A DNA stretch of 64,000 bases. Source: Escherichia phage vB_vPM_PD112. Position numbers and translations under genes: made by a program. The notes below the pieces were generated by a model. It was given only the letters and a program-made list of their open reading frames with translations, did not search any database and was not told the DNA's origin. The stretch lies in sequence record NC_054928.1; one strand, given 5' to 3'. Positions 45,729-64,000 of this stretch are shown here, piece after piece; the stretch's first letter is position 1; every line of letters begins with the position of its first letter.

Positions 45729-45729
45729 A

Positions 45730-48298: not shown

Positions 48299-48370
48299 CA
48301 ACTTTGTGAAAAATATTTTAGGGAATGATAAGAAAGGAACGATAGCTTAGAATGGTAATATACAGAATGT

Positions 48371-48393: not shown

Positions 48394-48397
48394 CGTC

Positions 48398-49004: not shown

Positions 49005-49006
49005 AA

Positions 49007-49222
49007 TTAGGCCTTTTTATCAAGAACAGCATTTAGTTTGTTAGTAATTTTATCCAGACGCTCATTGAACTCGCTAGAAGATAGTCCTTTTTCTGGAGAA
49101 ATTAAGCTAATCACGAAAAATATAGCAATAAAAGGAATAAGAAAAATAGCACCAACTGCCATAAACAAAAAGAACGTTACAGTTGTAAGAAAATCAGCTA
49201 AACCTTTACGAAATTTATACAT
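49007..49222 (-). CDS. small membrane protein, 71 aa
   Basis: Track ORF, ATG start; one long hydrophobic span. Confidence 0.5.
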   Translation of the reverse strand: MYKFRKGLADFLTTVTFFLFMAVGAIFLIPFIAIFFVISLISPEKGLSSSEFNERLDKITNKLNAVLDKKA

Positions 49223-49337
49223 ATTTTACCCTTAATTGATTAACCAAGCATTGATAAGCACTAAACTATACTGTGAATAAAATTCTGGACCAAAATGAAA
49301 AATCATATCATTTATAGTATCCATAATGTAATTCAAT

Positions 49338-49808
49338 TTAATCATGTTTCCACACCCCATCGGTATTTGACCAAAGTCGCTGATTATCTGATCCTCGCCA
49401 CAGCTTTTTGGTCGGAAGATTTTTCTCATACTTCCCATCAATAATAACATCAACATATTTAAGCATTTCTAGTTGTTTAATATCTTCAAACTTATATCCT
49501 GTCCACAACCAAATGCTTTTATTGGGATAAAGATTTTTTACTGTTTGAACAATGCAATGAACATCATCTCGGTTATCAGGATAAAGAGGGTCTCCTCCAG
49601 TTATAGTTAATCCTTCTATATAATCATTATTCAAACATTCAATTAATTGTTCTAGTGTTTCACCAGTGAATGGAACGCCATTTCTAGCATTCCATGTTGA
49701 TTTATTATAACACCCTTCACATTTATGCAAACACCCCGTAACGAAAAGAACGACCCTGCATCCAGGGCCATTTACAAAGCAGCACGGGTATATTCTGTCA
49801 TAATTCAT
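49338..49808 (-). CDS. nrdG: anaerobic ribonucleotide reductase activase (radical SAM)
   Basis: 156 aa from ATG (track adds a TTG extension); CxxxCxxC in GCLHKCEGCYN. Confidence 0.9.
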   Translation of the reverse strand: MNYDRIYPCCFVNGPGCRVVLFVTGCLHKCEGCYNKSTWNARNGVPFTGETLEQLIECLNNDYIEGLTITGGDPLYPDNRDDVHCIVQTVKNLYPNKSIWLWTGYKFEDIKQLEMLKYVDVIIDGKYEKNLPTKKLWRGSDNQRLWSNTDGVWKHD

Positions 49809-50047
49809 AATAATATCCAATTTTTCCAAGCTTCATCAGTAGAATTACAGCGTTTTAGTATAAGATGTCTAGAAACTTTTATGGCATTTGAGCACTTTTT
49901 AATTGAATCATATTTTAATAAAGCGGCACGAATCAATGTTCCTGACCCCATATAACCGTCATTTATGTTATCGGTGCTATGCGCACCGATATATTCCTTT
50001 GAATTAATTATATTTGTTATTTTATAAATTATATAATACCTATGCAT
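49805..50047 (-). pseudogene. truncated GIY-YIG homing endonuclease remnant, 80 aa
   Basis: YYIIYKITN...KEYIGAHSTDNINDGYMGSGTLI parallels the SegA N-terminus, then ends with no DNA-binding domain. Confidence 0.6.
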
Positions 50048-51857
50048 GTTTTACTCGTTTTACCATTTCTTTCATTTTACCTAAATTCCATGGAACAACG
50101 CTAGGAGTTCCAAGATATCCGCATGTTCTTCTTATGGTGTTCATCTTTTTAGGATCAGTTTCTCCACAAATAGAACAAACAAATCCGTTCTCGGTTGGAG
50201 TCATTTCATGGGTACTTCCACACGTAAAACATTTATCTACTGGCATATTAACGCCAAAATAATCTAAATGTTGTGCAGCATAATCCCATACAGCCTCAAG
50301 GCCTTTTAGGTTATTTTTCATATCAGGAAGTTCAACATAAGAAATGTGACCGCCTGTCGCGATGAAATGATATGGGGCTTCGCGAGAAATCTTTTCAAAT
50401 GGAGTAATATTTTCTTCTACTGAAACGTGGAAACTGTTAGTGTACCAGCCTTTATCAGTAACATCTTTTACACTTCCATATTTTTCGGTATCAAGTTTAC
50501 AGAAGCGATAGCACAGGTTTTCAGCAGGAGTAGAATACAAGCTAAAAGCAAATCCGGTTCTTTCAGTCCACTGCTTAAGATGAGTATTCATTTTAGTTAA
50601 AATTTCTTGTCCAATATCACGACCGACAAGAATATTCAATTCGTGAATACCAATGTATCCTAGGGACACTGAACTTCTACCATTTTTAAATAACTCAATT
50701 ATATCGTCATCAGGTTTAAGACGAACCCCGAATGCACCTTCCTGGTAAAGAATAGGAGCAACAGTAGCTTTAACTCCTTTTAAGGAACTAATTCTACACA
50801 TCAATGCTTCAAAACATAAATCCATTCGTTCATTGAACAATTCGGCAAATTTCTGTTCATTGAACTGTGTTCCAATATAAGAATCTAATGCAATACGAGG
50901 AAGATTCAGTGTTACAACACCAAGATTATTACGTCCATCAAGAATTTCATTACCAGTCGAATCTTTCCATACGCCCAAGAAACTACGGCAACCCATTGGA
51001 GAAACAGGAATAGATGAACCGGTGATAGCTTTATTGTTCTTAGCCGAAATGATGTCAGGATACATTCTTTTGCTTGCGCACTCTAAAGCAAGCTGCTTAA
51101 TATCATAGTTCGGATCGTCTTTATAAAGATTAACACCTTCTTCAACGAACATAACAAGTTTAGGGAAAATAGGAGTTATCCCATCACGACCGAGACCTTT
51201 AATACGATTTTTCAGAATTGCTTTCTGAATCATTCGTTCAGTCCAGTCAGTTCCCGTACCAAATGTAATTGTTACAAAAGGAGTTTGTCCGTTTGAACTA
51301 AAGAGAGTATTTACTTCATATTCATAAGCTTGGAACGCATCGTATACGTCTTTTTCTGTTTTAGATTGGGCATAATTCAACGCATCAGTGATTTGCCATT
51401 TTTCCGCGTCCTCAATATGTTTCGCATAGGTGCGTTTAACATAAGGAGAAAGTACTTTATCTACATTCGCAAAAGTCGTTCCGCCATATTGATGAGAAGC
51501 AACCTGTGCAGTAATTTGTGCCATAATTGCAGTAGCAACGCCAATTGATTTAGGAGTTTCAATCTGTGCATTACCGAGCTTAAATCCGTTCTCAAGCATT
51601 CCTTTTAAATCTACTAAACAGCAATTAGTAAAAGGCAATGATATACTGTAATCTAAATCATGAAAATGAATTAACCCGGCATTATGAGCATTTACAATAT
51701 GGCTTGGAAGAATACTGCAAGCGATATGTTTAGAAACAATACCGGCCATTAAATCTCTTTTTGTTGGAAAGACACGAGAATCTTTGTTGGCGTTTTCGGT
51801 ATTTAATTCTTTATCTTTATTTGAAATAAAATTTAAAACATCTTTCTCTAAAGACAT
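50040..51857 (-). CDS. nrdD: anaerobic ribonucleotide reductase, glycyl-radical enzyme
   Basis: 605 aa uninterrupted ORF; C-terminal glycyl-radical motif RRTCGYLG and zinc ribbon. Confidence 0.95.
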   Translation of the reverse strand: MSLEKDVLNFISNKDKELNTENANKDSRVFPTKRDLMAGIVSKHIACSILPSHIVNAHNAGLIHFHDLDYSISLPFTNCCLVDLKGMLENGFKLGNAQIETPKSIGVATAIMAQITAQVASHQYGGTTFANVDKVLSPYVKRTYAKHIEDAEKWQITDALNYAQSKTEKDVYDAFQAYEYEVNTLFSSNGQTPFVTITFGTGTDWTERMIQKAILKNRIKGLGRDGITPIFPKLVMFVEEGVNLYKDDPNYDIKQLALECASKRMYPDIISAKNNKAITGSSIPVSPMGCRSFLGVWKDSTGNEILDGRNNLGVVTLNLPRIALDSYIGTQFNEQKFAELFNERMDLCFEALMCRISSLKGVKATVAPILYQEGAFGVRLKPDDDIIELFKNGRSSVSLGYIGIHELNILVGRDIGQEILTKMNTHLKQWTERTGFAFSLYSTPAENLCYRFCKLDTEKYGSVKDVTDKGWYTNSFHVSVEENITPFEKISREAPYHFIATGGHISYVELPDMKNNLKGLEAVWDYAAQHLDYFGVNMPVDKCFTCGSTHEMTPTENGFVCSICGETDPKKMNTIRRTCGYLGTPSVVPWNLGKMKEMVKRVKHA

Positions 51858-52669
51858 AATTCTAATTTATCCTTTTGAAATTCTTCGTCTAAATATGGGT
51901 TCCAACCCATTTTAAACCTTTTGATGAAATTATCAATTCTAAATTTCGGTAAGTTTAAATCCGCAAAAATAGATGATTTACTTTTAAAATCTGGACCTAA
52001 ATAATCATATAAAATTTCTGCGTATTTTAACCATAATATATAAGTACCAGATTTAATTGCTCTCGGAGTTTTCCAAGGTTTTACACCATACATCGGATTT
52101 CCACTTCCTTTATGCCTGATAGAAGATGAAATTCCAATTTTAATTTTAGCTTCCTCTGTATGCGAAAATCCATGATGTGGATTTTCTTTCCAGTATTTTT
52201 TAGAAGCTTCTGATATTTTCTTTCTGGCTAAATTAGTATGATGCTTTCCATAAAATCCATGATTTTTACCTTTATTACGATTTCTTTTAATCATGGTTAT
52301 TGATTGCTTTTTTCTAGTTTCTTTAGAAGGAGAAACACCGTATGTTGTAAATTGACCATTAGCATATGCTAAATTAAAATACTCTTTATTCCATATATCT
52401 TTTTCTATATTCTTTTGAAATTCAGCTTCAATGCTAGTTATTTGCTCATCTCCGACTAATTGAAAATATAATATTTCAACTTTCGGCGTTTCTTTCAACA
52501 GGGCTTTTTGAAATTCGGAAGATGACGAAGACGAATAATAAAATTTACCATTTTTATCAATAATATTCGTTCCGTCAAAAGTGCAATTGGTTTTACTTCC
52601 AATATAATAATACGGCGGGGTTTTAGCATTAATTCTACTAATAAATGATAGTTTATATACTACATTCAT
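51848..52669 (-). CDS. Seg-like GIY-YIG homing endonuclease
   Basis: 273 aa; divergent GIY-YIG (VYKLSFI...PYYYIGSK) and two NUMOD-like repeats (GKNHGFYGKHHT, GSGNPMYG); free-standing between nrdD and 49. Confidence 0.65.
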   Translation of the reverse strand: MNVVYKLSFISRINAKTPPYYYIGSKTNCTFDGTNIIDKNGKFYYSSSSSSEFQKALLKETPKVEILYFQLVGDEQITSIEAEFQKNIEKDIWNKEYFNLAYANGQFTTYGVSPSKETRKKQSITMIKRNRNKGKNHGFYGKHHTNLARKKISEASKKYWKENPHHGFSHTEEAKIKIGISSSIRHKGSGNPMYGVKPWKTPRAIKSGTYILWLKYAEILYDYLGPDFKSKSSIFADLNLPKFRIDNFIKRFKMGWNPYLDEEFQKDKLELCL

Positions 52670-53139
52670 TTTAAACTCTTTCTAAGCTGCTTCTTAAATG
52701 AAGCTATTAATTGTGTTTTGGTGTCAGATTCATTATATTCAAATCCTCTTTGAAGCATCTCAGCCATCATTTCCTCTTTTCCTAAACGAGAAAATTCCTT
52801 TGATTTATCTCCAACGAAGTTAGGGTGAATATTATTTTGGGTGTAATCGGATTTTAAATAAGTAAGTAAATTTTCTAACCATTCAAGATAATCAACGCCT
52901 TGTCCCTTTAAGCCAGAACGATTAAATTTGTGTTTCATTTGACCTTCTGCAGCATTACACAGATTACAAAGCAATCCACGTACCTTTCCAGCTTTCGGTC
53001 CATTTAATTCATGGTCATGGTCAAGGTGATTAGCTTGAACATCAGGATTTAGTTCTCGTTGGCAAATTAAGCATTTACCGTTTTGTGCATTATAAAATTT
53101 TTGTTTTTCTTCTTTGTATAATTTGCCAGTCAATAACAT
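52666..53139 (-). CDS. 49: endonuclease VII (Holliday junction resolvase)
   Basis: 157 aa, the T4 gp49 length; zinc-binding CLIC...C...C and His motif. Confidence 0.9.
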   Translation of the reverse strand: MLLTGKLYKEEKQKFYNAQNGKCLICQRELNPDVQANHLDHDHELNGPKAGKVRGLLCNLCNAAEGQMKHKFNRSGLKGQGVDYLEWLENLLTYLKSDYTQNNIHPNFVGDKSKEFSRLGKEEMMAEMLQRGFEYNESDTKTQLIASFKKQLRKSLK

Positions 53140-53181
53140 AATAAAACCCTTACCTTGAATAGATAAGGGTATTTATTATTT

Positions 53182-53358
53182 TCAAGTATTGTAAAACATT
53201 CGATGCAATCGCTTATATTGTCGAATCATCTTTTTAGTAGGACGAGAATAAGTTCCTACACAAGTGGTCATATTAGGGTCAGTAGGACTTCCTTTAATAA
53301 AAAGTTTCCAGACTTTACCACCATTTAACTTTTCAGTATAAATCAATTCAGTTTTCAT
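53182..53358 (-). CDS. small protein, 58 aa
   Basis: Hand-translated MKTELIYTEKLNGGKVWKLFIKGSPTDPNM...; not in track. Confidence 0.3.
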   Translation of the reverse strand: MKTELIYTEKLNGGKVWKLFIKGSPTDPNMTTCVGTYSRPTKKMIRQYKRLHRMFYNT

Positions 53359-53804
53359 TAAAATGCTCGGTCAGAAAAAGAAATTTGAGTTTCAAGCCAT
53401 TCAATATATTCTGCCGCAGCTTGCATCAAATTTCCTTCATAACCATCGTTATTTTCTTGTGCAGCTAATTTAGCTAATGCATATGAAATACGTTCACCCT
53501 GAAAAGCGGCTTTAGGTTTATGAATAGCTTGATCAACTCGTTCTACGACTTCTTCAATTTCGCCATTTTCTACTGATTCAGTGTTCCACAAGCACCAATA
53601 GGCAGTTGGCTTATCGTAGATGTTAATAATCTTTCCATCAGAAAGTTCAATTTCAATAATTCCAATATCAGGTTCTATATCATCTTCACATTCTTTTACA
53701 AGTTCACGAACTTTAAAGACAGTACCTGCACTAAGTTCCGGCCAGTAATTACACAGCTCTTTATCAGCACGATTAATTCTAAACCACTTATCTACTGCAA
53801 TCAT
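53358..53804 (-). CDS. acidic protein, about 148 aa (possibly pin by position)
   Basis: Track start is TTG, first ATG used; name is from T4 gene order only. Confidence 0.4.
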   Translation of the reverse strand: MIAVDKWFRINRADKELCNYWPELSAGTVFKVRELVKECEDDIEPDIGIIEIELSDGKIINIYDKPTAYWCLWNTESVENGEIEEVVERVDQAIHKPKAAFQGERISYALAKLAAQENNDGYEGNLMQAAAEYIEWLETQISFSDRAF

Positions 53805-53926
53805 GTCCCATCTCCATATCAATTATGTCATTTATTGTAGGTTCATTATATACTGTTTCTTCATCAGTGTAAACCGGTTCTTCCGGCTCTGGCTCTACAG
53901 TTTCCCATCTAACCGCCCACCAAGGT

Positions 53927-54097
53927 TTAACCCCGAAGCTTATTAAGTTCTTCATAATCAATCCAGGATTCTAGTCCTGATGGCAAATCATATTCAATTT
54001 CCCAAAGAAGTTCTTCAATTTTCTGAAGACGATCTAATTCTTCAGCTGGAATAGTAACCATTGACGGAGCTCTTGCTACATTAATATCGTAAATCAT
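53927..54097 (-). CDS. hypothetical protein, about 56 aa
   Basis: Track ORF trimmed from GTG to first ATG, which removes the overlap with the upstream ORF. Confidence 0.4.
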   Translation of the reverse strand: MIYDINVARAPSMVTIPAEELDRLQKIEELLWEIEYDLPSGLESWIDYEELNKLRG

Positions 54098-54099
54098 AT

Positions 54100-54315
54100 T
54101 TACCCCAGTTTGACCATACAATCGCCGTATTTCCACTTAGAAATAGACTTTTCACCGTTAGAATAATAAACTTCGAGTTTAGCACGGTTATTTTTAATTT
54201 GAATAATCTTTGCTGTCATCAAAGTTCCATACCCATAATAAACTGCAACTTCATCACCTACATATACCGCGCTTCCGCGGTAGTCATGGATATAATCAGT
54301 TCCTTCGAGCATCAT
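54100..54315 (-). CDS. hypothetical protein, 71 aa
   Basis: Track ORF, ATG start. Confidence 0.5.
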   Translation of the reverse strand: MMLEGTDYIHDYRGSAVYVGDEVAVYYGYGTLMTAKIIQIKNNRAKLEVYYSNGEKSISKWKYGDCMVKLG

Positions 54316-54575
54316 TTAAAGTATTCCCGCAATTGGTCAAATCCACCAATATGACTTCCATCAGGAGCAAATACTTGTGGCATTGTCAAACCAATTTGAG
54401 TATCACGACCTAGTTTCGTCAGAAGCTCAGCGATTTTCTCATCATCAAAAACACCTTTTTCCGGCATAATATTGATAAATTCAAACGGCTGTTTCTTCAC
54501 AGTCAAAAGACGTTTTGCATTATCGCAATACACACATTTGTGTATGTTGCTATCATAACCATATACTTTAAACAT
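54312..54575 (-). CDS. nrdC: thioredoxin (NrdC)
   Basis: 87 aa with CVYC active site; T4 NrdC length. Confidence 0.85.
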   Translation of the reverse strand: MFKVYGYDSNIHKCVYCDNAKRLLTVKKQPFEFINIMPEKGVFDDEKIAELLTKLGRDTQIGLTMPQVFAPDGSHIGGFDQLREYFK

Positions 54576-54643
54576 ATTATTCCTTAATTCCTAATACTTG
54601 TTTAAAAGTCTCGTCGTAATCAAGACTTTGGCCCGTTTGTTCT

Positions 54644-54817
54644 TTATGTTTGTATAATATCACTTACTTCTGATAGCATATTTTTATATGAACGAGTTAA
54701 AGCTGATTTAAGCACGCTGTATCTATCAGGAAATTTACCATGTTCATTATAATAAGCTATTGCTAATTCACGGACTGCCTTTTCAGCAGTCTCCATATAT
54801 TCTTTACGCTTGGTCAT
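54644..54817 (-). CDS. hypothetical protein, about 57 aa
   Basis: Track ORF trimmed from TTG to first ATG. Confidence 0.4.
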
Positions 54818-55121
54818 TTTCTTCTCGGTTAAATCGGTGTTTGCAATGACGACATTTATATTCAAGCTCTGGTTTACGCCAGTTAATCAATTGGACCTGT
54901 TCAGTACCACATTTTGGGCAGTTCGGAACATTCTTAGAAGCCCTTTCGCGGCGTTCAACCATAACCATAATGGCATCCCAAGCAGGAGGTTTAAAGTCTA
55001 GATCGTCACAGCCATGAATCTTTCCACGCATTTCCAGATCGTCTTCTTCACCAGCCATAATGATTTTAATTAGACTGGAATTACTTGAAGCTGCAATATC
55101 TTCTAATAGACGCTTTTTCAT
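54804..55121 (-). CDS. zinc-finger protein, 105 aa
   Basis: Two CxxC pairs (CPKCGTE, CRHCKH); ATG start. Confidence 0.5.
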
Positions 55122-56044
55122 TTCAATACCTCAATAGCATTACGTAAACCATTTGCTTTTGCATTAAGAGCTTTTAACAATTTGGTATGTTCGGCAATCT
55201 GGACTTCAACTTCAATCAAACGAGCATTGAGATATTCGCGTTCTTCGCTCAAGTTATCAATCTTTTCTACTTTAGGTTCTTTTACAACTGGCTTATATGT
55301 ATTAGGGTTCTTCAGTTTAATTAGAATGCGTGAACTGTATAACATTGAACCATTATCTTCGGTTTCATCATACATTTCCACTACGTCCATCATCTCCACC
55401 ATCGTGCAGAGTTTATAAGACAGCGAACGAATAGTTTTGTTATGCTTATTAATTTCTCTAGCTGTCATGGTGCCGAGATTACGTGAGTAATAATAAGGAA
55501 CCTGGATATTAATTAATACTGATGAACCACCTGGCTTGTGTGTTACTTCATCAGCAATAACCCAGTCCTTAACATGAACTGTATTTGTACGGTCATCGCC
55601 CGCGGTAAATAGTTTACGAGCATGCTTAAAAAGCATATTCACTTGGTCATTGAATTGACAAGCGAATTTATCAGCAAATTTAGTTTCAGGAATGGTAGAT
55701 AACCAATCAGCTAAATGGGTCTTTTTAACATCGTTAACAATAGTAAATTCAACCAAATCGGTTATAGATGTCGCAGTTTTAATGAATCTCGGCTTCATAA
55801 AGTTTTTAATGTTATCGCGAGCTACAGTAGAAGATAACAGACGAGAACGTTTAAACCATTGAAGCAAATTGCCTAACGAATGAGAATAAGCGTTTTGAGT
55901 ATCTTTACAGATATGATTTTCCTGGCCAACATATTGAAGGAAATCACGAAGAATATTATTGATTACTGCTCTGTGCCCAATCTGATAATTACGGTGTTTA
56001 GTAATAAGACTGTCAAAATAATCAATATAATGTTTACGAGTCAT
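55118..56044 (-). CDS. hypothetical protein, about 308 aa, C-terminal coiled coil
   Basis: Track ORF trimmed to ATG MTRKHYID with SD GGAG, downstream of promoter 56073-56101. Confidence 0.5.
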   Translation of the reverse strand: MTRKHYIDYFDSLITKHRNYQIGHRAVINNILRDFLQYVGQENHICKDTQNAYSHSLGNLLQWFKRSRLLSSTVARDNIKNFMKPRFIKTATSITDLVEFTIVNDVKKTHLADWLSTIPETKFADKFACQFNDQVNMLFKHARKLFTAGDDRTNTVHVKDWVIADEVTHKPGGSSVLINIQVPYYYSRNLGTMTAREINKHNKTIRSLSYKLCTMVEMMDVVEMYDETEDNGSMLYSSRILIKLKNPNTYKPVVKEPKVEKIDNLSEEREYLNARLIEVEVQIAEHTKLLKALNAKANGLRNAIEVLK

Positions 56045-56072
56045 ATTAATCTCCTCAGTAGAAAGTAAGAAC

Positions 56073-56101
56073 ATTATACCACATCCTTGCGGCAAAGTAA
56101 A
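56073..56101 (-). promoter_or_regulatory. T4-early-type promoter, near-copy of the one at 10161-10190
   Basis: Minus strand TTTACT (plus 56096-56101), 17 nt, TATAAT (plus 56073-56078); 28 of 30 nt identical to 10161-10190. Confidence 0.7.
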
Positions 56102-57115
56102 CTAGTTCAGTGCATTTAGTGCATTGTTCAGTTTAGAACGTTGCTTCGTGAGATTTTTGACTTTTTCTTGAGCTTTTTCTAACATCTTTTCAGCTTCTAA
56201 CACTTCATTAGTTGCTTTAACGAGTTCATCATCTACTGCCTTAAGAGACTTCTCAATCGCGTCAGCGTGCCATTTTTCTACAGGTTTAAAATTTGAATTT
56301 TCAGTAGGAAGAAAATTCACTTTATTGAATTTCCATGCATTTTTATTACCTGAACTATACATCCAAAATTTAGGATCGTTTGATAAGTAATTGGATAAAT
56401 TTAAATTTAAGTTATCTTGCACTTCCTGCTTTTTCTCTTGCGTGACTTCGTCCTTTCTCAAAAAATCGTATTTAAATGAAACGATCATATCAAGTTCATA
56501 TGTTGTGTCTAAGAAATGCTGTGAAATCTTAGACTGAACAGCGGCAACAACATCCATATACTTAAATGCTTCTGTCAACTGCGATTTAAGGCATTCACAA
56601 ATTGAAAGAGAATTTTTTGTATTAGGTTTAAAGCTAATTCGTGCAGTTCTATTATTTTCTTTTAATGGTCTTACTTCCATCTGAAGAGTATAACCATCAA
56701 ATTTCAGATTCTTTAAGTTAATATCAGAACCTTTCAATCGACTCGCAGTTGATAAAATTTGTTTTAATTGTTTACGGAATAGAGCAATAAATCTCCATTC
56801 AAGACGATAATGATTTGGATTAAAAAATCCTGTTGATAAATCGACCTTACTTTGACCAACGCCTTGAACAAATAGAGGATTTTTATAATCAATAGTTTTA
56901 CAGAAATCGGTGAGCTGCTCACGAGCCGTCATTTGCGTAATATACCCTGCTTCGCTAAAATTACGCACCCATTCACTGCTATTCGTATACTTAAAGTGAT
57001 GAATAACACGATTAACTTTATCAGGGTCTAAATTATTTTCACACAAAAATGTCATAACATCACGAGTATAACTGGCATTACGAACCATATCTTCAATTTG
57101 AGAACGAGTTTTCAT
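56102..57115 (-). CDS. hypothetical protein, 337 aa, C-terminal coiled coil
   Basis: Track ORF, ATG start. Confidence 0.55.
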   Translation of the reverse strand: MKTRSQIEDMVRNASYTRDVMTFLCENNLDPDKVNRVIHHFKYTNSSEWVRNFSEAGYITQMTAREQLTDFCKTIDYKNPLFVQGVGQSKVDLSTGFFNPNHYRLEWRFIALFRKQLKQILSTASRLKGSDINLKNLKFDGYTLQMEVRPLKENNRTARISFKPNTKNSLSICECLKSQLTEAFKYMDVVAAVQSKISQHFLDTTYELDMIVSFKYDFLRKDEVTQEKKQEVQDNLNLNLSNYLSNDPKFWMYSSGNKNAWKFNKVNFLPTENSNFKPVEKWHADAIEKSLKAVDDELVKATNEVLEAEKMLEKAQEKVKNLTKQRSKLNNALNALN

Positions 57116-57123
57116 GGTGTTCC

Positions 57124-58014
57124 TTAAGATTTAAGTAAATCAACAATTTTAATTAACTTTTCACGCTCAGATTTAGCTTTACTACTCAATCCAGATAGTC
57201 TGAAAATTTCATCGTCATATTGTTGAATAGAAATATTCAGCTCTTCAATTTGCTTATTAAAATAATCAATTTGTTCAGAATGTTTTTCGTTACTACGAAC
57301 TGGTACAGGTTTTGTAGGCAATTTAGTTGAACTGGATTCATCCGGGCGATAAATTAAAATACAACTTGAACCAATCGGACATTTAGCACCAGACACATAT
57401 TCTAATGTTCCGGCTTCTTTTAAAACTTCAAAAGCTAAACAGAGATGATGACCCATATTGGCATAATCTGTAGAGTGAGCTCTGATGTAATAATCATCTC
57501 CACGAGTACTAAATTTAAAGCATTTAAGGTCTTCTGTATTATTGGTCTTAAAAATCATTTGTTTATCTAGACCTTTAGCTAATCGAGCGCCTAATGCTAA
57601 TAATCGTCGTTGATTTTCCCACAAATCCGCAATCATTTGGTCAAATGATAATTTCGGCATTAGTCGACCATAAAGGTCATATCCTTTATTATAATTACGA
57701 AGGATTTCACTCGCATTAATACGAGACAACGCTCCAATTTTATTAAGGGCTTTCATAATGCGATTAGATAAACTCATTCCAGACCCGTTTGGTCGCTGTA
57801 AATGTTTTTCTAATCCAAATCCAATATCAACTTTAAACTTATCTAAAATTTCGGCATGAACATCTTTATCAATAACATTCAAATCCAAAGTTGGGTTAAA
57901 TCTATGAAAAAATTTATCTGGCTCTCCACGACGAAATACAGTCCATTCATTCATCATTTTTTTATTAACTAAAGATTTAATTACTGTATTGACATTATTA
58001 ATTACTACTGACAT
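57124..58014 (-). CDS. hypothetical protein, about 296 aa
   Basis: Track start is GTG; first ATG gives MSVVINNV... Confidence 0.5.
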   Translation of the reverse strand: MSVVINNVNTVIKSLVNKKMMNEWTVFRRGEPDKFFHRFNPTLDLNVIDKDVHAEILDKFKVDIGFGLEKHLQRPNGSGMSLSNRIMKALNKIGALSRINASEILRNYNKGYDLYGRLMPKLSFDQMIADLWENQRRLLALGARLAKGLDKQMIFKTNNTEDLKCFKFSTRGDDYYIRAHSTDYANMGHHLCLAFEVLKEAGTLEYVSGAKCPIGSSCILIYRPDESSSTKLPTKPVPVRSNEKHSEQIDYFNKQIEELNISIQQYDDEIFRLSGLSSKAKSEREKLIKIVDLLKS

Positions 58015-58021
58015 ATTTTCC

Positions 58022-58429
58022 TCACTCAATTTCAATTTTACTAAATACACAGAATATGATTGAACAGACTACATAAGCACCACACACAGATTGAACTAAT
58101 ACCATCCCAAAGAACCAAACAATATTATCAAACAGTGTCTGTTTTACGTCGAAAGGACGTAAACTTACAGTAATATTATCACCTTTTTCTATTGAAGAAT
58201 ACATCTCTGGGGAAATATATTCACTAAATCTATAACCGTCTTTGAGTTCATATACAGCAATAAACGATAAACTAGACCCCTTTCCTTGTGTTCCTGTAAT
58301 GGTATTAACTACAGTAACATCATAATCTTTATAATGCATATAATCATTAATTGCGTAATAACCGTATGCAACTACTACACATAAACAACATATCAATAAA
58401 TTCAATCTTTTAATTATCAACTGTTTCAT
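58022..58429 (-). CDS. membrane protein, 135 aa
   Basis: N- and C-terminal hydrophobic spans; ATG start; middle promoter upstream. Confidence 0.5.
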   Translation of the reverse strand: MKQLIIKRLNLLICCLCVVVAYGYYAINDYMHYKDYDVTVVNTITGTQGKGSSLSFIAVYELKDGYRFSEYISPEMYSSIEKGDNITVSLRPFDVKQTLFDNIVWFFGMVLVQSVCGAYVVCSIIFCVFSKIEIE

Positions 58430-58458
58430 AATAATCTCAATTAAAAGGGCTTAGAACC

Positions 58459-58482
58459 ATTATACCATCCTTGGTATAAAGC
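58459..58482 (-). promoter_or_regulatory. MotA-box middle promoter
   Basis: Minus strand GCTTTA (plus 58477-58482), 12 nt, TATAAT (plus 58459-58464). Confidence 0.55.
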
Positions 58483-58484
58483 GG

Positions 58485-59012
58485 TTATGCGAGTACCGTC
58501 TTTAACCGTTCTTCAAACTTCCGAAGAGTATTTTGGCGTTCAGCTCTTTGCTTTTTGTAAGTTTCAATACGCTCTGAAATGAGAGTGTATCGTTCATTTA
58601 CTGATTCTTTCATAAAATCAGGAATTTCACGAGAAGCTTTAATCTCATCAAATTTATCAATAACAGCTTGCTCTTCAGCAATTAAGTTATCATACATTAA
58701 AATATCTTTCTTGATGAACTCAATATCTTCTTGAGTTACACGAGATAATTTAGATGCTTTATCCTTTTTGTACTGTTCGTTAGTATCACGAGACCAGTGT
58801 AATGTACGATTTTTATTCGTATTCTTATAAATTTCTACAATACCAATCTCATCGATAATAACGATCCAATTCCAATGGGATTTGTAAATTTGTCCTCCAT
58901 CAACCGTGATTTCACCTCCAATTGAGATGTCATTAAAGAACTTGCTTTGTGCTTCAGATTTAAATTTACCATCGTTATAATTTACCAAGTTGAAAATATC
59001 TTTAGCGTTCAT
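58485..59012 (-). CDS. hypothetical protein, 175 aa
   Basis: Track ORF, ATG start, SD GGAGGA. Confidence 0.55.
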   Translation of the reverse strand: MNAKDIFNLVNYNDGKFKSEAQSKFFNDISIGGEITVDGGQIYKSHWNWIVIIDEIGIVEIYKNTNKNRTLHWSRDTNEQYKKDKASKLSRVTQEDIEFIKKDILMYDNLIAEEQAVIDKFDEIKASREIPDFMKESVNERYTLISERIETYKKQRAERQNTLRKFEERLKTVLA

Positions 59013-59040
59013 TTTCTGTTCCTCCGTAGTTGATAGTTGT

Positions 59041-59070
59041 ATAGTACCACAGAGGAACAGTCTTGTAAAC
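59041..59070 (-). promoter_or_regulatory. T4-early-type promoter
   Basis: Minus strand TTTACA (plus 59065-59070), 18 nt, TACTAT (plus 59041-59046); leader nearly identical to the motA promoter. Confidence 0.65.
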
Positions 59071-59072
59071 CA

Positions 59073-59387
59073 CTAAAAGAAACTTCTTTCACAATTTTTT
59101 CCACTAAACCATGCGCTCACTGCTTTCTTAGTCTCAGGAGCAGTGTTATCCATAAACCATTCAAAGGCAGCCTTTTTATGATTCTGGAGGGCTTCTCGGG
59201 CTTTAATCTGCTCACGGTCTATTAACACTAACATATGAGCCTTTCTTGTCACCATGGGCTTCTTATGATTTTTTGAATACTCCCAGTCATTTGTCCATCG
59301 CATTGTCGTTGCGAACTGAAATACAGCTTCTTTAATCTTAGTTTCGTAAATTTCACGAGCCTTTGAGTATAACATCACTACCTCCAT
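59073..59387 (-). CDS. hypothetical protein, 104 aa
   Basis: Track ORF, ATG start. Confidence 0.5.
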   Translation of the reverse strand: MEVVMLYSKAREIYETKIKEAVFQFATTMRWTNDWEYSKNHKKPMVTRKAHMLVLIDREQIKAREALQNHKKAAFEWFMDNTAPETKKAVSAWFSGKNCERSFF

Positions 59388-59477
59388 TCACCAGTTTAAT
59401 TCTAGTCATCTTTTTAATGGCAGTCCATATAATCTATTTCTGAACTGCCTTTTTGTCTTAGAAGGCCTCTTATGAAT

Positions 59478-60446
59478 TTATTTCAGAAGAGTAACCTCAG
59501 CAATTTCTTGCCAACCGTTTTTGTCGGTCATAATAAAGTCAGCAAGATAAAGTGCAGTACGCAGTGAAACATTGCGTAAACGGTTAACATTGACTTTCAT
59601 CCATGATAATGCTTTATAAGTTTCTTCATCAGAAAGACCGCGCTTTTGCATCATGTCGGTTGAAAGAATAACATCTTCAACCCTGACCATAATTTCTTCA
59701 TTAGTGTGAACACCCAAATCCAAATAAACTGAGCGGGATACTAATGCTTGTAAATGTGGAGCAAGTTTAGTACCACGGTCTAATTCGCGGTCAATGTCAA
59801 CGTTTGTGATAAAAACAATCGTTCCTTTAAATTCAAACTCACGCTCAATGCCTTTTTCTTCTAAGTAAGAAGATGCAGTGCTCCAGCAGACTTTACGGGT
59901 CTCTCCAGTGTCCAGAGCGGCTTTTAGAAGATTAAGAATGTCCATATCAGAGAAAACATCCACATCATCAATCAAAAGGACAGAATTCTCTTCACGATTA
60001 TTCCAAAGTTGTTCATAAAGACCGATACCGGAGATTTTACCGTTAATGCTTTTATATTCAATGTATCCATTATCATTTGCTTTATTCAAAGCTTTATCTA
60101 AAGAATACGTTTTACCAATACCTGCTGCACCAGAGATAATTAATGAACGAATGTTTCCGTTAATAATACCATTCGTCATCATTCCCATAACATTAAATCT
60201 TTTATTAATGCGGGTTTTCATATCTTCATACGATTCTTTAACTTCTTCAACTTTTACACCATCATATGAAATGTCTGATTTGTAAACCCAAACACCGCGA
60301 CGTTTACCGTCAATTTCAACAAAAACTTTACCATCTCCTTGTGCATCTACCGGAGCATTATCTGGGAACCATTCACCTAAGAGCTCAAAAGTTCCAGAGA
60401 TTTCTTTACCGAAGTAGATACCCTTATTGATAGTTACAGTTTTCAT
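59478..60446 (-). CDS. P-loop ATPase (AAA-like), function unknown
   Basis: Walker A GAAGIGKTY and Walker B VLLIDDVD; track start is TTG, first ATG used. Confidence 0.6.
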   Translation of the reverse strand: MKTVTINKGIYFGKEISGTFELLGEWFPDNAPVDAQGDGKVFVEIDGKRRGVWVYKSDISYDGVKVEEVKESYEDMKTRINKRFNVMGMMTNGIINGNIRSLIISGAAGIGKTYSLDKALNKANDNGYIEYKSINGKISGIGLYEQLWNNREENSVLLIDDVDVFSDMDILNLLKAALDTGETRKVCWSTASSYLEEKGIEREFEFKGTIVFITNVDIDRELDRGTKLAPHLQALVSRSVYLDLGVHTNEEIMVRVEDVILSTDMMQKRGLSDEETYKALSWMKVNVNRLRNVSLRTALYLADFIMTDKNGWQEIAEVTLLK

Positions 60447-60482
60447 TTTATTCTCCAATTTTACATTTGTTTTGATAGGGTA

Positions 60483-60511
60483 ATAGTATCACACTACTAC
60501 CCTGCTGTAAA
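60483..60511 (-). promoter_or_regulatory. T4-early-type promoter
   Basis: Minus strand TTTACA (plus 60506-60511), 17 nt, TACTAT (plus 60483-60488). Confidence 0.65.
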
Positions 60512-60515
60512 CAAT

Positions 60516-60779
60516 TTATTTTAATGTTCGCCAAATTTTTACTGCTTCGCGACGAGATACTTCTACAGCTCCAAGTTCTACAGCTTTTTGGCGTCGCCGA
60601 GCGTGTAAGTCATAATGTTTAATGCGTTTATCTTGAAACCAAGAACGTTTCATTCCTATTGCTTCTGCCATTTCGTGAAGCTCTTCAATATCTCCATCAG
60701 TGAACATATGACAATTTTTAGTTGGATGACCGCGAAGTTTCCATCCATGATTCATTAAAACATCTACGTAAACTGTCAT
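60516..60779 (-). CDS. hypothetical protein, 87 aa
   Basis: Track ORF, ATG start. Confidence 0.5.
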   Translation of the reverse strand: MTVYVDVLMNHGWKLRGHPTKNCHMFTDGDIEELHEMAEAIGMKRSWFQDKRIKHYDLHARRRQKAVELGAVEVSRREAVKIWRTLK

Positions 60780-60925
60780 TGATTCTTCTCCAAATAAGTT
60801 TCGATAATTTTCTGAGCGAGATAAACTGCATTATCTTCAGTTGCATCTTCTAAGAAACTTTCAAAACACTCTGAAATTTCTTCTGTGTCAATCAACTTTT
60901 TTACTTCAATTGGTGTAATTTTCAT
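60776..60925 (-). CDS. small acidic protein, 49 aa
   Basis: Hand-translated MKITPIEVKKLIDTEEISECFESFLEDATEDNAVYLAQK...; ATGA overlap; not in track. Confidence 0.35.
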   Translation of the reverse strand: MKITPIEVKKLIDTEEISECFESFLEDATEDNAVYLAQKIIETYLEKNQ

Positions 60926-60963
60926 TTTGTTTTTCCGTTTAAGTGTTTGTTTTGATAGTTGTA

Positions 60964-60991
60964 TAGTACCATAAAGCTTTATGCTTGTAAA
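60964..60991 (-). promoter_or_regulatory. T4-early-type promoter
   Basis: Minus strand TTTACA (plus 60986-60991), 16 nt, TACTAT (plus 60964-60969). Confidence 0.65.
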
Positions 60992-60999
60992 CCGTTTTG

Positions 61000-61040
61000 T
61001 GAAAAATTTTTGAAATAAAAAAGGGAGCCCGAAGGCTCCC
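61000..61040 (-). terminator. intrinsic terminator
   Basis: Minus strand GGGAGCCUUCGGGCUCCC followed by UUUUUUAUUUC, just past the stop of ORF 61043-62056. Confidence 0.7.
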
Positions 61041-61042
61041 TA

Positions 61043-62056
61043 TCATTTATAATAACTTCGGTGGTTTTCAAGATAGACCTTCTCAAGGAAGTCATCCCAG
61101 AAACTCATGTCTACTGTTTTAGGCATACCGTTCTTAGAAGCTTCAGTAGATGCTGCTTCTACTTGATCGACCACATCTTCCAAAAACTCTTGAACCGTTT
61201 TAAATGGATGTTTACCCAACTTCACGTCAAGAATAAATGGAGCGTCTTGAAGTGGATAAACCAAGTCACCAGTTTTGTAAATTTCCAATAGTTGAAGTCC
61301 ACCACGACAAGCATGGCTCAGAGCTTTCCAGTCAATACCTTCGTTGGCTTTGGCCTTACGGGCACGTTCACCATATTCAGCATCTAATTTGTTCAGTGAC
61401 TGCTTAAGCTCAATAAGAGAAAGCGTTGTCTGATATTTACGACCCAACACAGTGTAGAACATTTGCGGGCCTGTTTTCTCATAATTATGGAACACCCATT
61501 CACAGAACTCGTTTTCTGGAAGACGATGCTTAATATCTTCAACTTTAGTGCGACGAAGTCTATCAGGGATTCCTTCTTGATAGTCGACCCACTGGTCAGG
61601 GATTTGATTAACTACTTTCAATACATCACGTAATGCGGCCAAACGAGAACCCTTGACACCGTATTTAGAAGCTTGCTTACGGACATATCCTAAATAGGAT
61701 TTCATGTTAGTCGTATAAAAACGAGAACGGTTGTCTTGAATAAACTTCCACACATCAGGCAAATCAGATTTAACCACTAGCTCAGGTGGAGTGTGAAGCA
61801 TATCTAATGCTACAGTTTCACCATCTGCTGCTAATTTAAAGAAATACTTAAGACTGTATAGTTCATGGTCAATATCATCTTTAGTGTTTTTAGATGATGT
61901 GTTGTTAGTGTTTTTACTCATGTGCTCTTTAACGTTTCCAATAAGAATATCACGAGCAGGAGGAACAAAGATTTCTTTAAAATCTACATCAGATTCTGGA
62001 GTAGAAGTTCCATAAAGATGACTACCAAAATAACTTTTCATTACTGTTTTCATCAT
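61043..62056 (-). CDS. nucleotidyltransferase-like protein (Pol-beta superfamily motif)
   Basis: 337 aa; N-terminal GSHLYGTSTPESDVDF fits the GS...DxD nucleotidyltransferase signature. Confidence 0.55.
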   Translation of the reverse strand: MMKTVMKSYFGSHLYGTSTPESDVDFKEIFVPPARDILIGNVKEHMSKNTNNTSSKNTKDDIDHELYSLKYFFKLAADGETVALDMLHTPPELVVKSDLPDVWKFIQDNRSRFYTTNMKSYLGYVRKQASKYGVKGSRLAALRDVLKVVNQIPDQWVDYQEGIPDRLRRTKVEDIKHRLPENEFCEWVFHNYEKTGPQMFYTVLGRKYQTTLSLIELKQSLNKLDAEYGERARKAKANEGIDWKALSHACRGGLQLLEIYKTGDLVYPLQDAPFILDVKLGKHPFKTVQEFLEDVVDQVEAASTEASKNGMPKTVDMSFWDDFLEKVYLENHRSYYK

Positions 62057-62062
62057 TCAGCC

Positions 62063-62515
62063 TTATATTCCAATAACAGGACACACTTTAGCTTTACGAG
62101 CTTTTAAAAATTCAACGATAATCGATTTCTTGGGTTGAATAGGAGGTAAACCTTTATACGCCCTATCAATGTTTTCTACGTGTAAAGCATAATCCTTTTT
62201 CCATTTATAATCTTTATATTTTTCACGCAAATGTGCAGGAATAACAAATGAACCGATAATAAGTAAAACAACAAAAAGCGCAAGTATAAATGCCGATGGA
62301 AGAAGAATCCATAAACTACCGAAAATAAGCCAACGTTGTAGGCTTTCTGCACAAATAATTGTTAGCCCTACGAGTATAGCACATCCAAAAATAGAAACGA
62401 AAAATGTAGGAATGGCAATAGACCAAAAATATGCGCATAGTGTCTTAGGTCGTTGCCATTCATCGTTAAACAATTTGAATAATTTATAGTGCCAAGAGTT
62501 TTCATTAATAATCAT
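62063..62515 (-). CDS. membrane protein, 150 aa
   Basis: Two to three hydrophobic spans; ATG start. Confidence 0.55.
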   Translation of the reverse strand: MIINENSWHYKLFKLFNDEWQRPKTLCAYFWSIAIPTFFVSIFGCAILVGLTIICAESLQRWLIFGSLWILLPSAFILALFVVLLIIGSFVIPAHLREKYKDYKWKKDYALHVENIDRAYKGLPPIQPKKSIIVEFLKARKAKVCPVIGI

Positions 62516-62517
62516 AA

Positions 62518-63039
62518 TTATCCTTTCATTGAAGGTGTAACAGTTGTTAAATACTTAATCATAGCCTCAGCTTCTGATTTTGATAATGAAATTTCTCCAT
62601 TGTTTTGACGAATAGAAATAAAATCCGGATGACGGTCACCACCAGCTTTTAAAACACACATATAAGTATCAGTTTCATCTTCAATATTTGAAATGATTGA
62701 AGCAGTTCCACATGAATGCGGTTTTTGATAAATCAATACAGCTTTTCTTCCGCCATTTGACTGTTCATAAACTTTTAATACATCAAACAAATCACTTCTT
62801 TTATCAATAGCTAAAATGTTATTTTCATCTTCAATGTTAAATCCTTCGGATACTTCATAAAGTGTCACCCATAAATCGCCAATATCAATAACAGCGTTCA
62901 CTTTTCCATGACTTTCAAGAGCATGACAAATTTTCTTGATTTCGTCATAACTCATTTTAATAATATCATCTCCTTGACTAAGAAAGATGTCATTTTTAAA
63001 TTCAACACGAATTAAACCGCTTCCACTTGAAATAAACAT
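62518..63039 (-). CDS. hypothetical protein, 173 aa
   Basis: Track ORF, ATG start; paralogue of the next ORF. Confidence 0.55.
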   Translation of the reverse strand: MFISSGSGLIRVEFKNDIFLSQGDDIIKMSYDEIKKICHALESHGKVNAVIDIGDLWVTLYEVSEGFNIEDENNILAIDKRSDLFDVLKVYEQSNGGRKAVLIYQKPHSCGTASIISNIEDETDTYMCVLKAGGDRHPDFISIRQNNGEISLSKSEAEAMIKYLTTVTPSMKG

Positions 63040-63045
63040 ATTTCC

Positions 63046-63588
63046 TCACTTTGAAATCATAGTTGGAATAACAGAATCAAGATAAGTCTTTAGCGCAATA
63101 GCTTCGTCTTTGGTAAATGTGACAATATGTGCTCGAGAATCATCAATTTGACGAATAGTTAAGACATCTCCTTCTTCATAGCATTTTGATACATTTAAAA
63201 CAGTTTCATCATTCTGATCGCACTGATCGCAAGCGTTAGTAATAATAGCATTGCAATTTTTAAGCCATTTTAAACTATGTTTTCTTTCATTAGAATAATA
63301 AAAATATTTAATGTAAGTTATAAAATTATCCCAATTATTAATTGATAAGCATATTGACTCGCTTTCAATGTTAAATCCTGGGCATAAAGAATAGAAATGA
63401 ATTTTATGCTCATCATTAATGCTTACAATTTTATCAGTATAAGGATATTCAATTTGGGTTAAATGAATGATTTCACTAGGCGTAAAATATAGCATATCGT
63501 CTTCTTGCGTCAAACGATACATGTTATTTACTTTTTCTATAGCCAATTCACCAAAAAGCGGACTAACTTCTAGTACTAATCGTTTCAT
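63046..63588 (-). CDS. hypothetical protein, about 180 aa
   Basis: Track start is GTG, first ATG used; shares GFNIE and C-terminal YL..V.P.M motifs with ORF 62518-63039. Confidence 0.5.
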   Translation of the reverse strand: MKRLVLEVSPLFGELAIEKVNNMYRLTQEDDMLYFTPSEIIHLTQIEYPYTDKIVSINDEHKIHFYSLCPGFNIESESICLSINNWDNFITYIKYFYYSNERKHSLKWLKNCNAIITNACDQCDQNDETVLNVSKCYEEGDVLTIRQIDDSRAHIVTFTKDEAIALKTYLDSVIPTMISK

Positions 63589-63589
63589 A

Positions 63590-63856
63590 TTAATCCTTTT
63601 TATTGGCACGAATTTGTTCTAAAATTTTAGAATATTCCTTTGTATCAGATTTACGTACAATTGATACACTATAAGGCATACTATCGGTGTCTTTTATAAA
63701 GCGTTCCAAATGACACTCTAACAAAATTTCTGGATTATAAATCGTGTACATCAAATTACCTGTTGCTCCACGATATTGGCAGATTTCTACTGATTGAACA
63801 CCATTCCATAATTTTGTTAAAACTAAATCACCTACTTCTAATTTAGGAAAGCCCAT
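63590..63856 (-). CDS. hypothetical protein, about 88 aa
   Basis: Track start is TTG; first ATG gives MGFPKLEVGDLV... Confidence 0.45.
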   Translation of the reverse strand: MGFPKLEVGDLVLTKLWNGVQSVEICQYRGATGNLMYTIYNPEILLECHLERFIKDTDSMPYSVSIVRKSDTKEYSKILEQIRANKKD

Positions 63857-63857
63857 G

Positions 63858-64000
63858 TTATTCACCAATTAAAGTTTCAATATAAGAATCAAGATTTACT
63901 TTAGCTTCTTCCATAAGAGTTTTGTATTTAATCTTGTTAGCATGTCCGGAGAAAGCTGATTCATCAATAATTGTTGATGTATGAACAGCTTTACTATACG
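63858..64000 (-). CDS. partial ORF (C-terminal end only)
   Basis: Open frame ending ...YIETLIGE then TAA at 63858-63860; 5-prime end lies beyond the window. Confidence 0.35.
   Translation of the reverse strand, partial: YSKAVHTSTIIDESAFSGHANKIKYKTLMEEAKVNLDSYIETLIGE

Follow-up and report, generated by a model that had tools for sequence, protein, structure and literature searches.

Why do two intergenic sites 59 kb apart in one phage genome carry almost the same sequence, and what does the resemblance mean for regulation and for recombination? We address this question for a stretch of 64,000 nucleotides from Escherichia phage vB_vPM_PD112 (NC_054928.1), referred to here as the window. An earlier note on this DNA had described a near-identical terminator-plus-promoter cassette at two positions, each followed by a conserved leader, and had proposed that such dispersed direct repeats could be substrates for recombination-mediated deletion or duplication as well as regulatory elements. 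We refer to the repeats as copies A and B, and to the loci that hold them as sites A and B.

The window belongs to a Tequatrovirus (T4-like) genome whose best match is Escherichia phage vB_EcoM_CE1 (99.9% over 60000–62000), and the 2-kb stretches round copies A and B match hundreds of Tequatrovirus genomes. BLAST aligned the whole window collinearly with the T4 composite sequence (NC_000866), from T4 position 161,630 through the rIIB/rIIA numbering origin to about 57,800, that is, from the arn/motA region to the mobD region. All annotated T4 genes across this interval lie on the strand corresponding to the window minus strand. Both copies lie on that strand as well, and both are adjoined by small ORFs: copy A is located between motA.1 and motA, and copy B has its first base one past the nrdC.11 stop codon and is followed by a 49-aa ORF and an 87-aa DUF4031 ORF. 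The features described below are on the minus strand unless stated otherwise.

Each copy joins a predicted terminator to a predicted early promoter

Copy A spans 1977–2099, from its hairpin to the start of the next gene. The gene upstream, motA.1 (2104–2253), is a 49-aa ORF assigned from the ORF list and the T4 annotation. Downstream lies motA (1341–1976), the gene placed under copy A, which aligns to T4 motA and matches the Pfam families MotA_activ (1.2e-60) and MotCF (9e-67). A terminator scan, folding and comparison with T4 identify an intrinsic terminator hairpin, AGGGAGAGC-CGAA-GCTCTCCCT (2078–2099), that is predicted to end motA.1 transcription. A run of seven T (2071–2077) follows and forms, together with an A/T-rich UP-element tract, the block TTTTTTTATTTTAAAATTTTTTCACAAAACGG (2047–2077), which matches the corresponding block of copy B at 92% identity; the A/T-rich tract after the T-run reads ATTTTAAAATTTTTTCACAAAACGG. 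The core early promoter (2018–2046), recovered by the pattern scan, the promoter scan and nhmmer (E 3.5e-20), consists of the -35 element TTTACA (2046–2041), a 17-nt spacer, and TGG with the -10 element TACTAT (2026–2018). The start region and leader, ACAACTATCAACTACTGATACAGAATTACGGAGATTAGAAA (1977–2017), extend to the motA ATG. The motA.1/motA intergenic region of T4 differs from copy A in a loop base and in the T/A count, and the hairpin is otherwise the same.

Copy B spans 60926–61041 and lies downstream of nrdC.11 (61043–62056), which encodes a nucleotidyltransferase of the RlaP family (Pfam RlaP, 3.4e-11; T4 annotation). The terminator scan and folding place an intrinsic terminator hairpin, AGGGAGCC-UUCG-GGCTCCCT (61022–61041), directly after the nrdC.11 stop; this hairpin is identical in T4, T6 and G29. 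Next come a run of six T (61016–61021), which with the UP-element tract forms TTTTTTATTTCAAAAATTTTTCACAAAACGG (60992–61021; tract after the T-run, ATTTCAAAAATTTTTCACAAAACGG), and the core early promoter (60963–60991; pattern and promoter scans, nhmmer E 7.8e-16). The promoter consists of the -35 element TTTACA (60991–60986), a 17-nt spacer that contains the palindrome CATAAAGCTTTATG, and TGG with the -10 element TACTAT (60971–60963). It is followed by the start region and leader, ACAACTATCAAAACAAACACTTAAACGGAAAAACAAA (60926–60962), in which the motif CTATCAA marks the junction of an inserted module relative to T4, as judged from alignment with T4, T6 and G29. The parts common to both copies are, in order, the hairpin, the T-run, the UP tract, the -35 element in the context GTTTACA, the 17-nt spacer, the extended -10 element TGGTACTAT and the start region ACAACTATCAA; in both, a leader with a Shine-Dalgarno sequence and then an ATG follow the start region. 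TGG immediately precedes TACTAT in both copies, and the sequence upstream of the -35 element is TTTTAAAATTTTTTCACAAAAC or TTTCAAAAATTTTTCACAAAAC. The T4 nrdC.11/nrdC.10 region is the same as copy B as far as ACAACTATCAA.

The description of these elements as terminator-plus-promoter cassettes is borne out at the level of prediction, with top-ranking terminator matches and, after each hairpin, a complete putative UP/-35/TGn/-10 early promoter. When the DNA was scanned in 20-kb sections, the copy A hairpin was the best minus-strand terminator match in 1–20000 and the copy B hairpin the best in 44001–64000. The hairpins fold at -18.3 kcal/mol (A; z -5.45) and -17.7 kcal/mol (B; z -4.0), with no shuffled sequence as stable; their stems of 9 bp (A) and 8 bp (B) contain six GC pairs each and are followed by T7 and T6, respectively. 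Read on the plus strand, the copy A hairpin has no T-run after it, and the copy B hairpin has just the T-poor tail ATCATTTATA. Because the plus strand lacks a proper T-run, the hairpins look like terminators mainly for minus-strand transcripts. The promoter and terminator activities of both copies are predictions from consensus and from homology to T4. Rfam gave no matches for the whole window at gathering thresholds. We also considered an RNA structure in the promoter-to-leader region of either copy, as occurs at 59069 and 5180, but the folds equalled those of shuffled sequences (z -0.12 and -0.17). A mobile element of MITE or REP-like type was likewise rejected, since the only inverted repeat is the terminator stem and the only flank duplications are the promoter/leader repeats.

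The two copies are alike in functional blocks

The repeated segments are present at 2041–2100 and 60986–61040, where the earlier note had placed them. Global alignment of these segments gave 48 identical columns out of 60 (80.0%), which is exactly the identity of about 80 percent below which that note would have given up the repeat; the entire cassettes (2007–2100 and 60952–61042) are 82.3% identical. The -35 plus UP block is identical at 34/36 positions (94%) and the -10/start block at 21/22 (95%). The longest exact runs are 22 nt (from 2040 and 60985) and 20 nt (from 2007 and 60952). A dot plot with 25-nt words, the check proposed earlier, is therefore blind to this pair.

The term "near-identical" applies to the functional blocks only. 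Identity between copies A and B is 92% in the UP element (family mean 45%), 100% in the -35 element, 90% in TGG/-10 and 92% in the start region. By contrast, the 17-nt promoter spacer is 38% identical, which is family background (mean 31%), and the hairpin interiors and loops (CGAA versus UUCG) differ with pairing kept, both stems starting with GGGAG and ending with CTCCC. Similarity is thus confined to the polymerase-contact blocks and the outer hairpin pairs. Judged from the alignment, this block pattern is the one expected from selection on the predicted RNA-polymerase contacts, rather than from recent duplication.

The conserved leader described for both sites does follow the segment in the direction of minus-strand transcription; on the plus strand, the 15-mer in question precedes the segment. 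This 15-mer, tagttgtatagtacc (minus strand GGTACTATACAACTA), consists for the most part of the extended -10 element and the start region rather than of a leader. It is exact in copies A and B and also at 5655, 34211 and 59034. With up to three mismatches it has eight matches, compared with 1.6 expected, and none of 100 shuffles reached eight; a 17-mer spanning the -35 element has five matches, compared with 0.28 expected, and again no shuffle reached the observed count. Since both counts exceed expectation, the similarity of the repeats is far above chance.

Copies A and B belong to a family of early promoters

The pattern TTTAC-N16-19-TAHWAT has 19 matches on the minus strand of the window and none on the plus strand. 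Similarly, an nhmmer profile built from eight copies found about a dozen strong matches, all on the minus strand. Copies A and B form the top-scoring pair among the 153 pairs of 18 strong promoters, with 82% identity over positions -25 to +12, only narrowly ahead of A with the copy at 34246 (79%) and A with that at 5690 (77%). Within this family of about 18 strong early promoters they resemble each other most, but the pair is not unique.

A strong terminator 15–31 nt upstream was found for only 3 of the 18 promoters: copy A, copy B and a promoter at 23106. The distance from the stem to the -35 element is 31 nt in A and 30 nt in B. The scans found the element at 23106 (approximately 23078–23143), the third and last strong composite of terminator and early promoter in the window, with the hairpin AAGGACTCC-UUCG-GGAGTCCTT 15 nt upstream of its -35 element. 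Other family members detected with nhmmer include one at 34194–34269, which is 79% identical to A over -25 to +12 and has a 30-nt exact repeat in common with it by alignment; one at 5637–5713, which is 77% identical to A and borders a replacement in the ndd region that distinguishes the window from T4; one at 14283–14358 (E 1.6e-14); and one at 48245–48322 with a weaker hairpin 81 nt upstream. In the member upstream of nrdC.8 (59015–59092), folding paired the promoter spacer with the Shine-Dalgarno region in a stem of 15 bp, and the member at 5127–5201 has the same spacer-to-Shine-Dalgarno stem. A second early promoter at site B (60472–60521; nhmmer E 3.3e-07), which has no terminator, closes the inserted module and is predicted to drive nrdC.10 (59478–60446).

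Relatives differ by small gene modules at both sites

Relatives fall into discrete occupancy classes at site B, with zero, one, two or three extra small ORFs between nrdC.11 and nrdC.10. A single cassette without an extra ORF is present in T4 and T6; MLF4 carries orf66 (66 aa); the window and CE1 carry orf49 and orf87; and G29 carries orf161, orf49 and orf87, with orf161 (161 aa) having its own terminator. The two-ORF cargo module of the window (60516–60925) consists of orf49 (60776–60925) and orf87 (60516–60779, DUF4031) and is absent from T4 and T6: the T4 alignment runs to 60458 and resumes at 60952, an 82%-coverage class of relatives shows the same difference, and the ORFs have Pfam and PHROG matches. 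In G29, a 36-nt T-run/UP/-35 block, TTTTTTATTTCAAAAATTTTTCACAAAGTTGTTTAC, lies on both sides of orf161. In CrRp10, 53 bp of the site B cassette itself have been lost in a deletion at a GCT microhomology.

CTATCAAAACAAA occurs in the window after the copy B promoter, as part of its leader, and again after the second promoter at 60472–60521. We considered whether the T4 allele could have arisen by simple excision between these two promoters; the T4 leader from CTATCAA to the Shine-Dalgarno sequence is unlike both window leaders. At both sites, filled and empty alleles differ in the 13–25 nt between CTATCAA and the Shine-Dalgarno sequence, and because the leaders differ there, one-step excision between the window repeats does not recreate the T4 allele exactly. 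A search for orf87 (DUF4031) at other loci gave no case of relocation, the distance estimated between sibling Jiaodavirus records being consistent with a syntenic position.

Site A holds no or one extra small ORF in relatives. AV119 has an extra ORF, orf75 (75 aa), and a second promoter between the copy A orthologue and motA, and this insertion is flanked by a 23-nt direct repeat, CTATCAAATAAATGAACTGAAAC, beginning with CTATCAA. Site A of Mizar is laid out in a similar way, with two cassettes and one ORF; AV119 orf75 did not align with this ORF, orf71, and was rejected as its homologue. Upstream of motA in a Jiaodavirus, a hairpin that lacks a clear U-run is retained and precedes TTTTCACAAAGTTGTTTACAAG.

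Cargo from site B was also found at other loci. The MLF4 gene orf66 recurs in the nudE/lysozyme region of Mosigvirus SHSML-52-1 with 98.5% protein identity and four mismatches in the 201 nt of the ORF. Homology of the module runs from CTATCAAAACAAATGAGT, at CTATCAA just after the -10 element, to GTAGTCCTAT in the next promoter-like element; the upstream promoter spacer and the downstream genes are unrelated in the two phages. Klebsiella phage Marfa has a 73%-identical copy of orf66 between denB and ndd, and a 36%-identical paralogue (pairwise E 2e-08) lies at site A of Mizar. Movement of the orf66 cargo between loci is a prediction of the PeSL (promoter-early stem-loop) model discussed below. 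These comparisons indicate that relatives have swapped small genes at both sites A and B, and we infer that recombination was the mechanism at each.

Across the whole window, 4 of the 18 structural differences from T4 abut an early promoter, where 1.4 would be expected (P about 0.04); the null model is lenient, as it disregards the preference of both indels and promoters for intergenic DNA. We rejected this enrichment as a main argument, as it is too weak alone. One of the four promoter-abutting differences, the absence of nrdC.4, was considered as a promoter-bounded deletion and set aside: its joint lies in the first codons (ATGACTCGTAA) of the neighbouring genes and is a gene-start microhomology. 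Homing-endonuclease genes or an intron, unrelated to promoters, account for many of the remaining differences from T4.

Recombination between copies A and B

The proposal that the repeats are recombination substrates is supported locally, at each site, where the junctions of the small ORFs of relatives lie in the promoter/leader repeat. It is not supported between A and B. For a deletion or duplication of the 59 kb between them, we constructed synthetic 1-kb A/B chimeras, one for the deletion junction and one for the reciprocal junction, as queries against a set of 50,697 phage records. Partial matches came from 765 and 524 records for the two junction types, and none of these records had the deletion junction nrdC.11-cassette-motA or the reciprocal junction motA.1-cassette-orf49 in one place.

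These results bear on the possibility that A and B act as a pair whose recombination yields deletions, duplications or circles of 59 kb with consequences for the phage. The copies repeat each other in direct orientation on one strand, no other pair in their family is as similar, and the literature on PeSLs shows that such cassettes can recombine when close together. By contrast, exact homology amounts to only 22 and 20 nt with an unrelated spacer between, which makes the pair an implausible source of viable rearrangements. The A-to-B interval of 58,945 bp contains genes 52, 39, 60, 56, 61, 41, 42, 43, 62, 44, 45, 46, 47 and 55. Classical T4 genetics counts these genes among the essential ones, and their deletion would therefore be lethal; the T4 headful is roughly 172 kb, and a 59-kb duplication would exceed it. 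We regard a role for A and B as a recombining pair as extremely improbable. The 59-kb spacing has no biological meaning.

Discussion

We are confident that the loci are best explained as a whole by composite regulatory cassettes whose family likeness comes from a shared polymerase optimum and whose local surroundings exchange gene modules. This explanation draws on the anatomy, strand bias, family membership and conservation in T4 described above, together with the occupancy and junctions of the two sites. At each copy, a rho-independent terminator, formed by a GC-rich hairpin with a tetraloop and a U-run, would end the upstream early transcript (motA.1 at A, nrdC.11 at B). Some 30 nt beyond this, transcription of motA (at A) or of the two-ORF module (at B) would restart from a strong T4 early promoter that depends on sigma70. 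The two copies would be alike mainly because both come close to the host RNA polymerase optimum that all T4 early promoters share. As a side effect, conservation of the cassettes would provide short, portable homology for the gain, loss and exchange of small gene modules; the cassettes may be preferred joints for such events, or simply the only homology between unrelated small genes.

Selection for polymerase binding may not account for all of the similarity. The 22-nt exact identity of the UP/-35 region exceeds what the family consensus requires, leaving room for shared ancestry or gene conversion. Under that alternative, the similarity would reflect common descent or ongoing ectopic gene conversion (concerted evolution) in addition to selection. 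Copies A and B share AAAACGG before the -35 element, where other members have AAAACAG, AAAACTG or AAAGTTG, and the flank of copy B orthologues takes three forms, each of which also occurs in other family members: ACGG (the window, T4), GTTG (T6, G29) and ACTG (MLF4). Clustering of the changes in this way hints that promoter copies have undergone patchy gene conversion. The nearly equal stem-to-(-35) geometry and the shared GGGAG and CTCCC ends of the stems would also fit. However, the spacer is at family background and the hairpin interiors and loops differ, and each copy is stably orthologous in T4 with its private spacer, so that the whole cassette has undergone no recent conversion. In addition, the UP/-35 motif is conserved as far as Jiaodavirus, as functional constraint predicts. 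We consider a contribution of descent or conversion beyond selection unlikely.

It is also doubtful, in our judgement, that the cassettes are purely regulatory, with indels found there only because intergenic DNA between dispensable early genes tolerates insertion and homology of the flanking genes recombines. The modest breakpoint enrichment at promoters under a lenient null, the many T4 differences due to homing-endonuclease genes or an intron, and the microhomology joints at nrdC.4 (gene starts) and in CrRp10 (GCT) are all consistent with such a reading. It is contradicted by the junctions of four independent modules, orf161, orf49-orf87, orf66 and orf75, which lie in the promoter/leader repeat with direct repeats of 13–36 nt on both sides. 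Moreover, the orf66 module is found at another locus in another genus with its homology bounded by promoter elements, and homology of flanking genes cannot explain this placement in Mosigvirus. A bolder extension is that early promoters are interchangeable docking sites, with CTATCAA (and the UP/-35 block) as the preferred joint for ORF modules, the same cargo family at A, B and other loci, and promoters homogenised in patches by ectopic gene conversion. The leads towards it are orf66 at MLF4 site B, in Mosigvirus and in Marfa, its paralogue in Mizar, and the polymorphisms of the copy B UP flank; we advance it tentatively, as a possibility that is more apt to fail than to hold. The reading that we prefer remains that of regulatory cassettes with local module exchange.

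The outcome is useful mainly as a correct annotation of two intergenic regions, and little as a discovery. The motA.1/motA and nrdC.11/nrdC.10 regions are two well-documented docking sites in natural Tequatrovirus isolates, with zero to three alternative small ORFs. Both may be tolerated insertion points for phage engineering, and both are easy test loci for the PeSL recombination model.

Relation to known systems

T4 early promoters have been described as "uber" promoters with UP, -35, TGn and -10 elements that capture host sigma70 RNA polymerase right after infection and are modulated by Alt and ModA through ADP-ribosylation of the alpha subunit (Hinton, 2010; PMC2988021). The elements described here agree with them in the UP, -35, TGn and -10 elements, the extra conserved positions, the orientation of early transcription and the early gene downstream. 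T4 itself has both cassettes in almost identical form, the orthologues being the T4 promoters upstream of motA and nrdC.10. A difference lies at site B, where the T4 promoter drives nrdC.10 and the promoter of this phage would instead drive the inserted two-ORF module.

T4 early promoters with upstream terminators are an element type already known and published, the PeSL. The name was given by Arbiol et al. (2010; PMC2839356) to a sigma70-like early promoter with a stem-loop terminator, and promoter and terminator activity was shown there for examples from RB49/phi1. Comeau et al. (2014; PMC4122927) give the T4/PST consensus TTTACW-N17-TAYWAT with a stem-loop just upstream of the promoter, and both sources associate PeSLs with indels and mini-circles. 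The role of such cassettes as recombination substrates is itself already published as the PeSL model; the searchable text of the two papers mentions neither motA nor nrdC.

Copies A and B share the layout of PeSLs, namely an intergenic stem-loop terminator, an A/T-rich tract, a sigma70-type early promoter, a Shine-Dalgarno sequence and the start of the next gene. Each is one intergenic element of about 70–100 bp with a Shine-Dalgarno sequence and the next gene start, and both fit the T4/PST consensus with the stem-loop just upstream of the promoter. As with PeSLs, variable small ORFs lie next to both, and the modules that distinguish relatives have the repeats at their borders. The element is repeated among small ORFs, with 18 strong promoter copies in the window but a strong terminator at only three of them. 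Indels and replacements among close relatives have their junctions in the repeats at sites A and B, and the enrichment across the window is modest. The stems differ from those described: here they are GGGAG...CTCCC with CGAA or UUCG loops, whereas AGNA-loop-TCNT is described as a frequent form in PST, with high variability.

Conserved intergenic boundary sequences have been proposed to guide modular exchange in lambdoid phages. Like these sequences, and like REP/BIME and MITE elements, the repeats described here are short, dispersed and intergenic and could be homology patches for rearrangement. Unlike them, they are primarily transcriptional and strictly strand-biased, and they are neither autonomous nor transposase-dependent; terminal inverted repeats and target-site duplications of MITE/REP type are absent. 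The hairpins also resemble intrinsic terminators with stable tetraloops, with which they share a GC-rich stem of 8–9 bp, a UUCG or CGAA loop, six to seven U and a position directly after a stop codon. They differ from such terminators in that the U-run passes directly into the UP element of the promoter that follows; a single A/T tract would thus serve both terminator and promoter.

Variation at cassette B and a second hairpin family

We observed a natural lesion in cassette B, the minus-strand terminator and early promoter 3' of nrdC.11. In Citrobacter phage CrRp10, the orthologue (2047–2108) of window 60952–61042 carries a 53-bp deletion, bounded by GCT microhomologies, that extends from the 3' half of the terminator stem through the T-run, UP tract and -35 into the spacer, most of which is also lost. 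At least one natural isolate therefore does not require cassette B. In the window, promoter B has a perfect palindrome of 14 nt, CATAAAGCTTTATG, in its spacer (60972–60985), centred on a HindIII site. This palindrome is kept in T4, T6, MLF4 and G29; its RNA fold is not significant.

A repeat search of the window also revealed a second repeat family, consisting of hairpins of type AAAGGGCCGAAGCCCTTT at 6546–6563, 13103–13116, 39068–39081, 43778–43791 and 47417–47430. These hairpins are unrelated to the GGGAG stems of cassettes A and B, and are probably further terminators, able to form on either strand.

Differences from T4 and a small-ORF family at four loci

The window lacks T4 segF, mobB, mobC, the nrdD group I intron with I-TevII, and mobD (window coordinates 23331–23796, 44986–45011, 49816–50065, 51319–51322 and 62057–63021), and two other ORFs, 62063–62515 and 62518–63039, occupy the mobD position. 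From the 5' part of nrdD to gene 49, the window has ~870 bp (51798–52666), as compared with ~55 bp in T4. T4 nrdC.4 is also absent (window 56025–56041 versus T4 49853–50896); the joint falls within the first codons (ATGACTCGTAA...) common to neighbouring genes, with an early promoter directly upstream at 56073–56101. A promoter-plus-ORF module in the 61.4–sp region (27385–27713) is extra relative to T4. Early promoters at 27348–27376 and 27662–27691 bound this module, and the -10 of the inserted promoter is flanked by a perfect 9-bp inverted repeat, GCTGATAGA...TCTATCAGC.

One family of small ORFs (66–71 aa, motif RFGKxKxG) occurs at four different early-region loci across four phage genera: nrdC.11–nrdC.10 in MLF4 (2104–2304), the nudE/e region in SHSML-52-1 (2501–2701), denB-ndd in Marfa (1998–2198) and motA.1–motA in Mizar (743–958).

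Spacer-leader stems at two further early promoters

RNA folding identified minus-strand stems at two early promoters other than those of cassettes A and B, at 59005–59072 (-25.4 kcal/mol, z -6.65) and 5116–5183 (-22.7 kcal/mol, z -4.75). At each, the promoter spacer, CUGUUCCUCUGUGGU or CUGUUCUUCCGUGGU, is complementary to the leader sequence ACUACGGAGGAACAG, forming a stem of 15 bp whose loop holds the -10 and whose leader arm includes the Shine-Dalgarno sequence. Judged from this arrangement, both arms would be present only in RNA reading through from upstream, and the stem could therefore act on that RNA selectively, blocking its translation and leaving promoter-started RNA translatable. Both stems match the subclass of promoter-early stem-loops (PeSLs) in which the stem-loop overlaps the -10.
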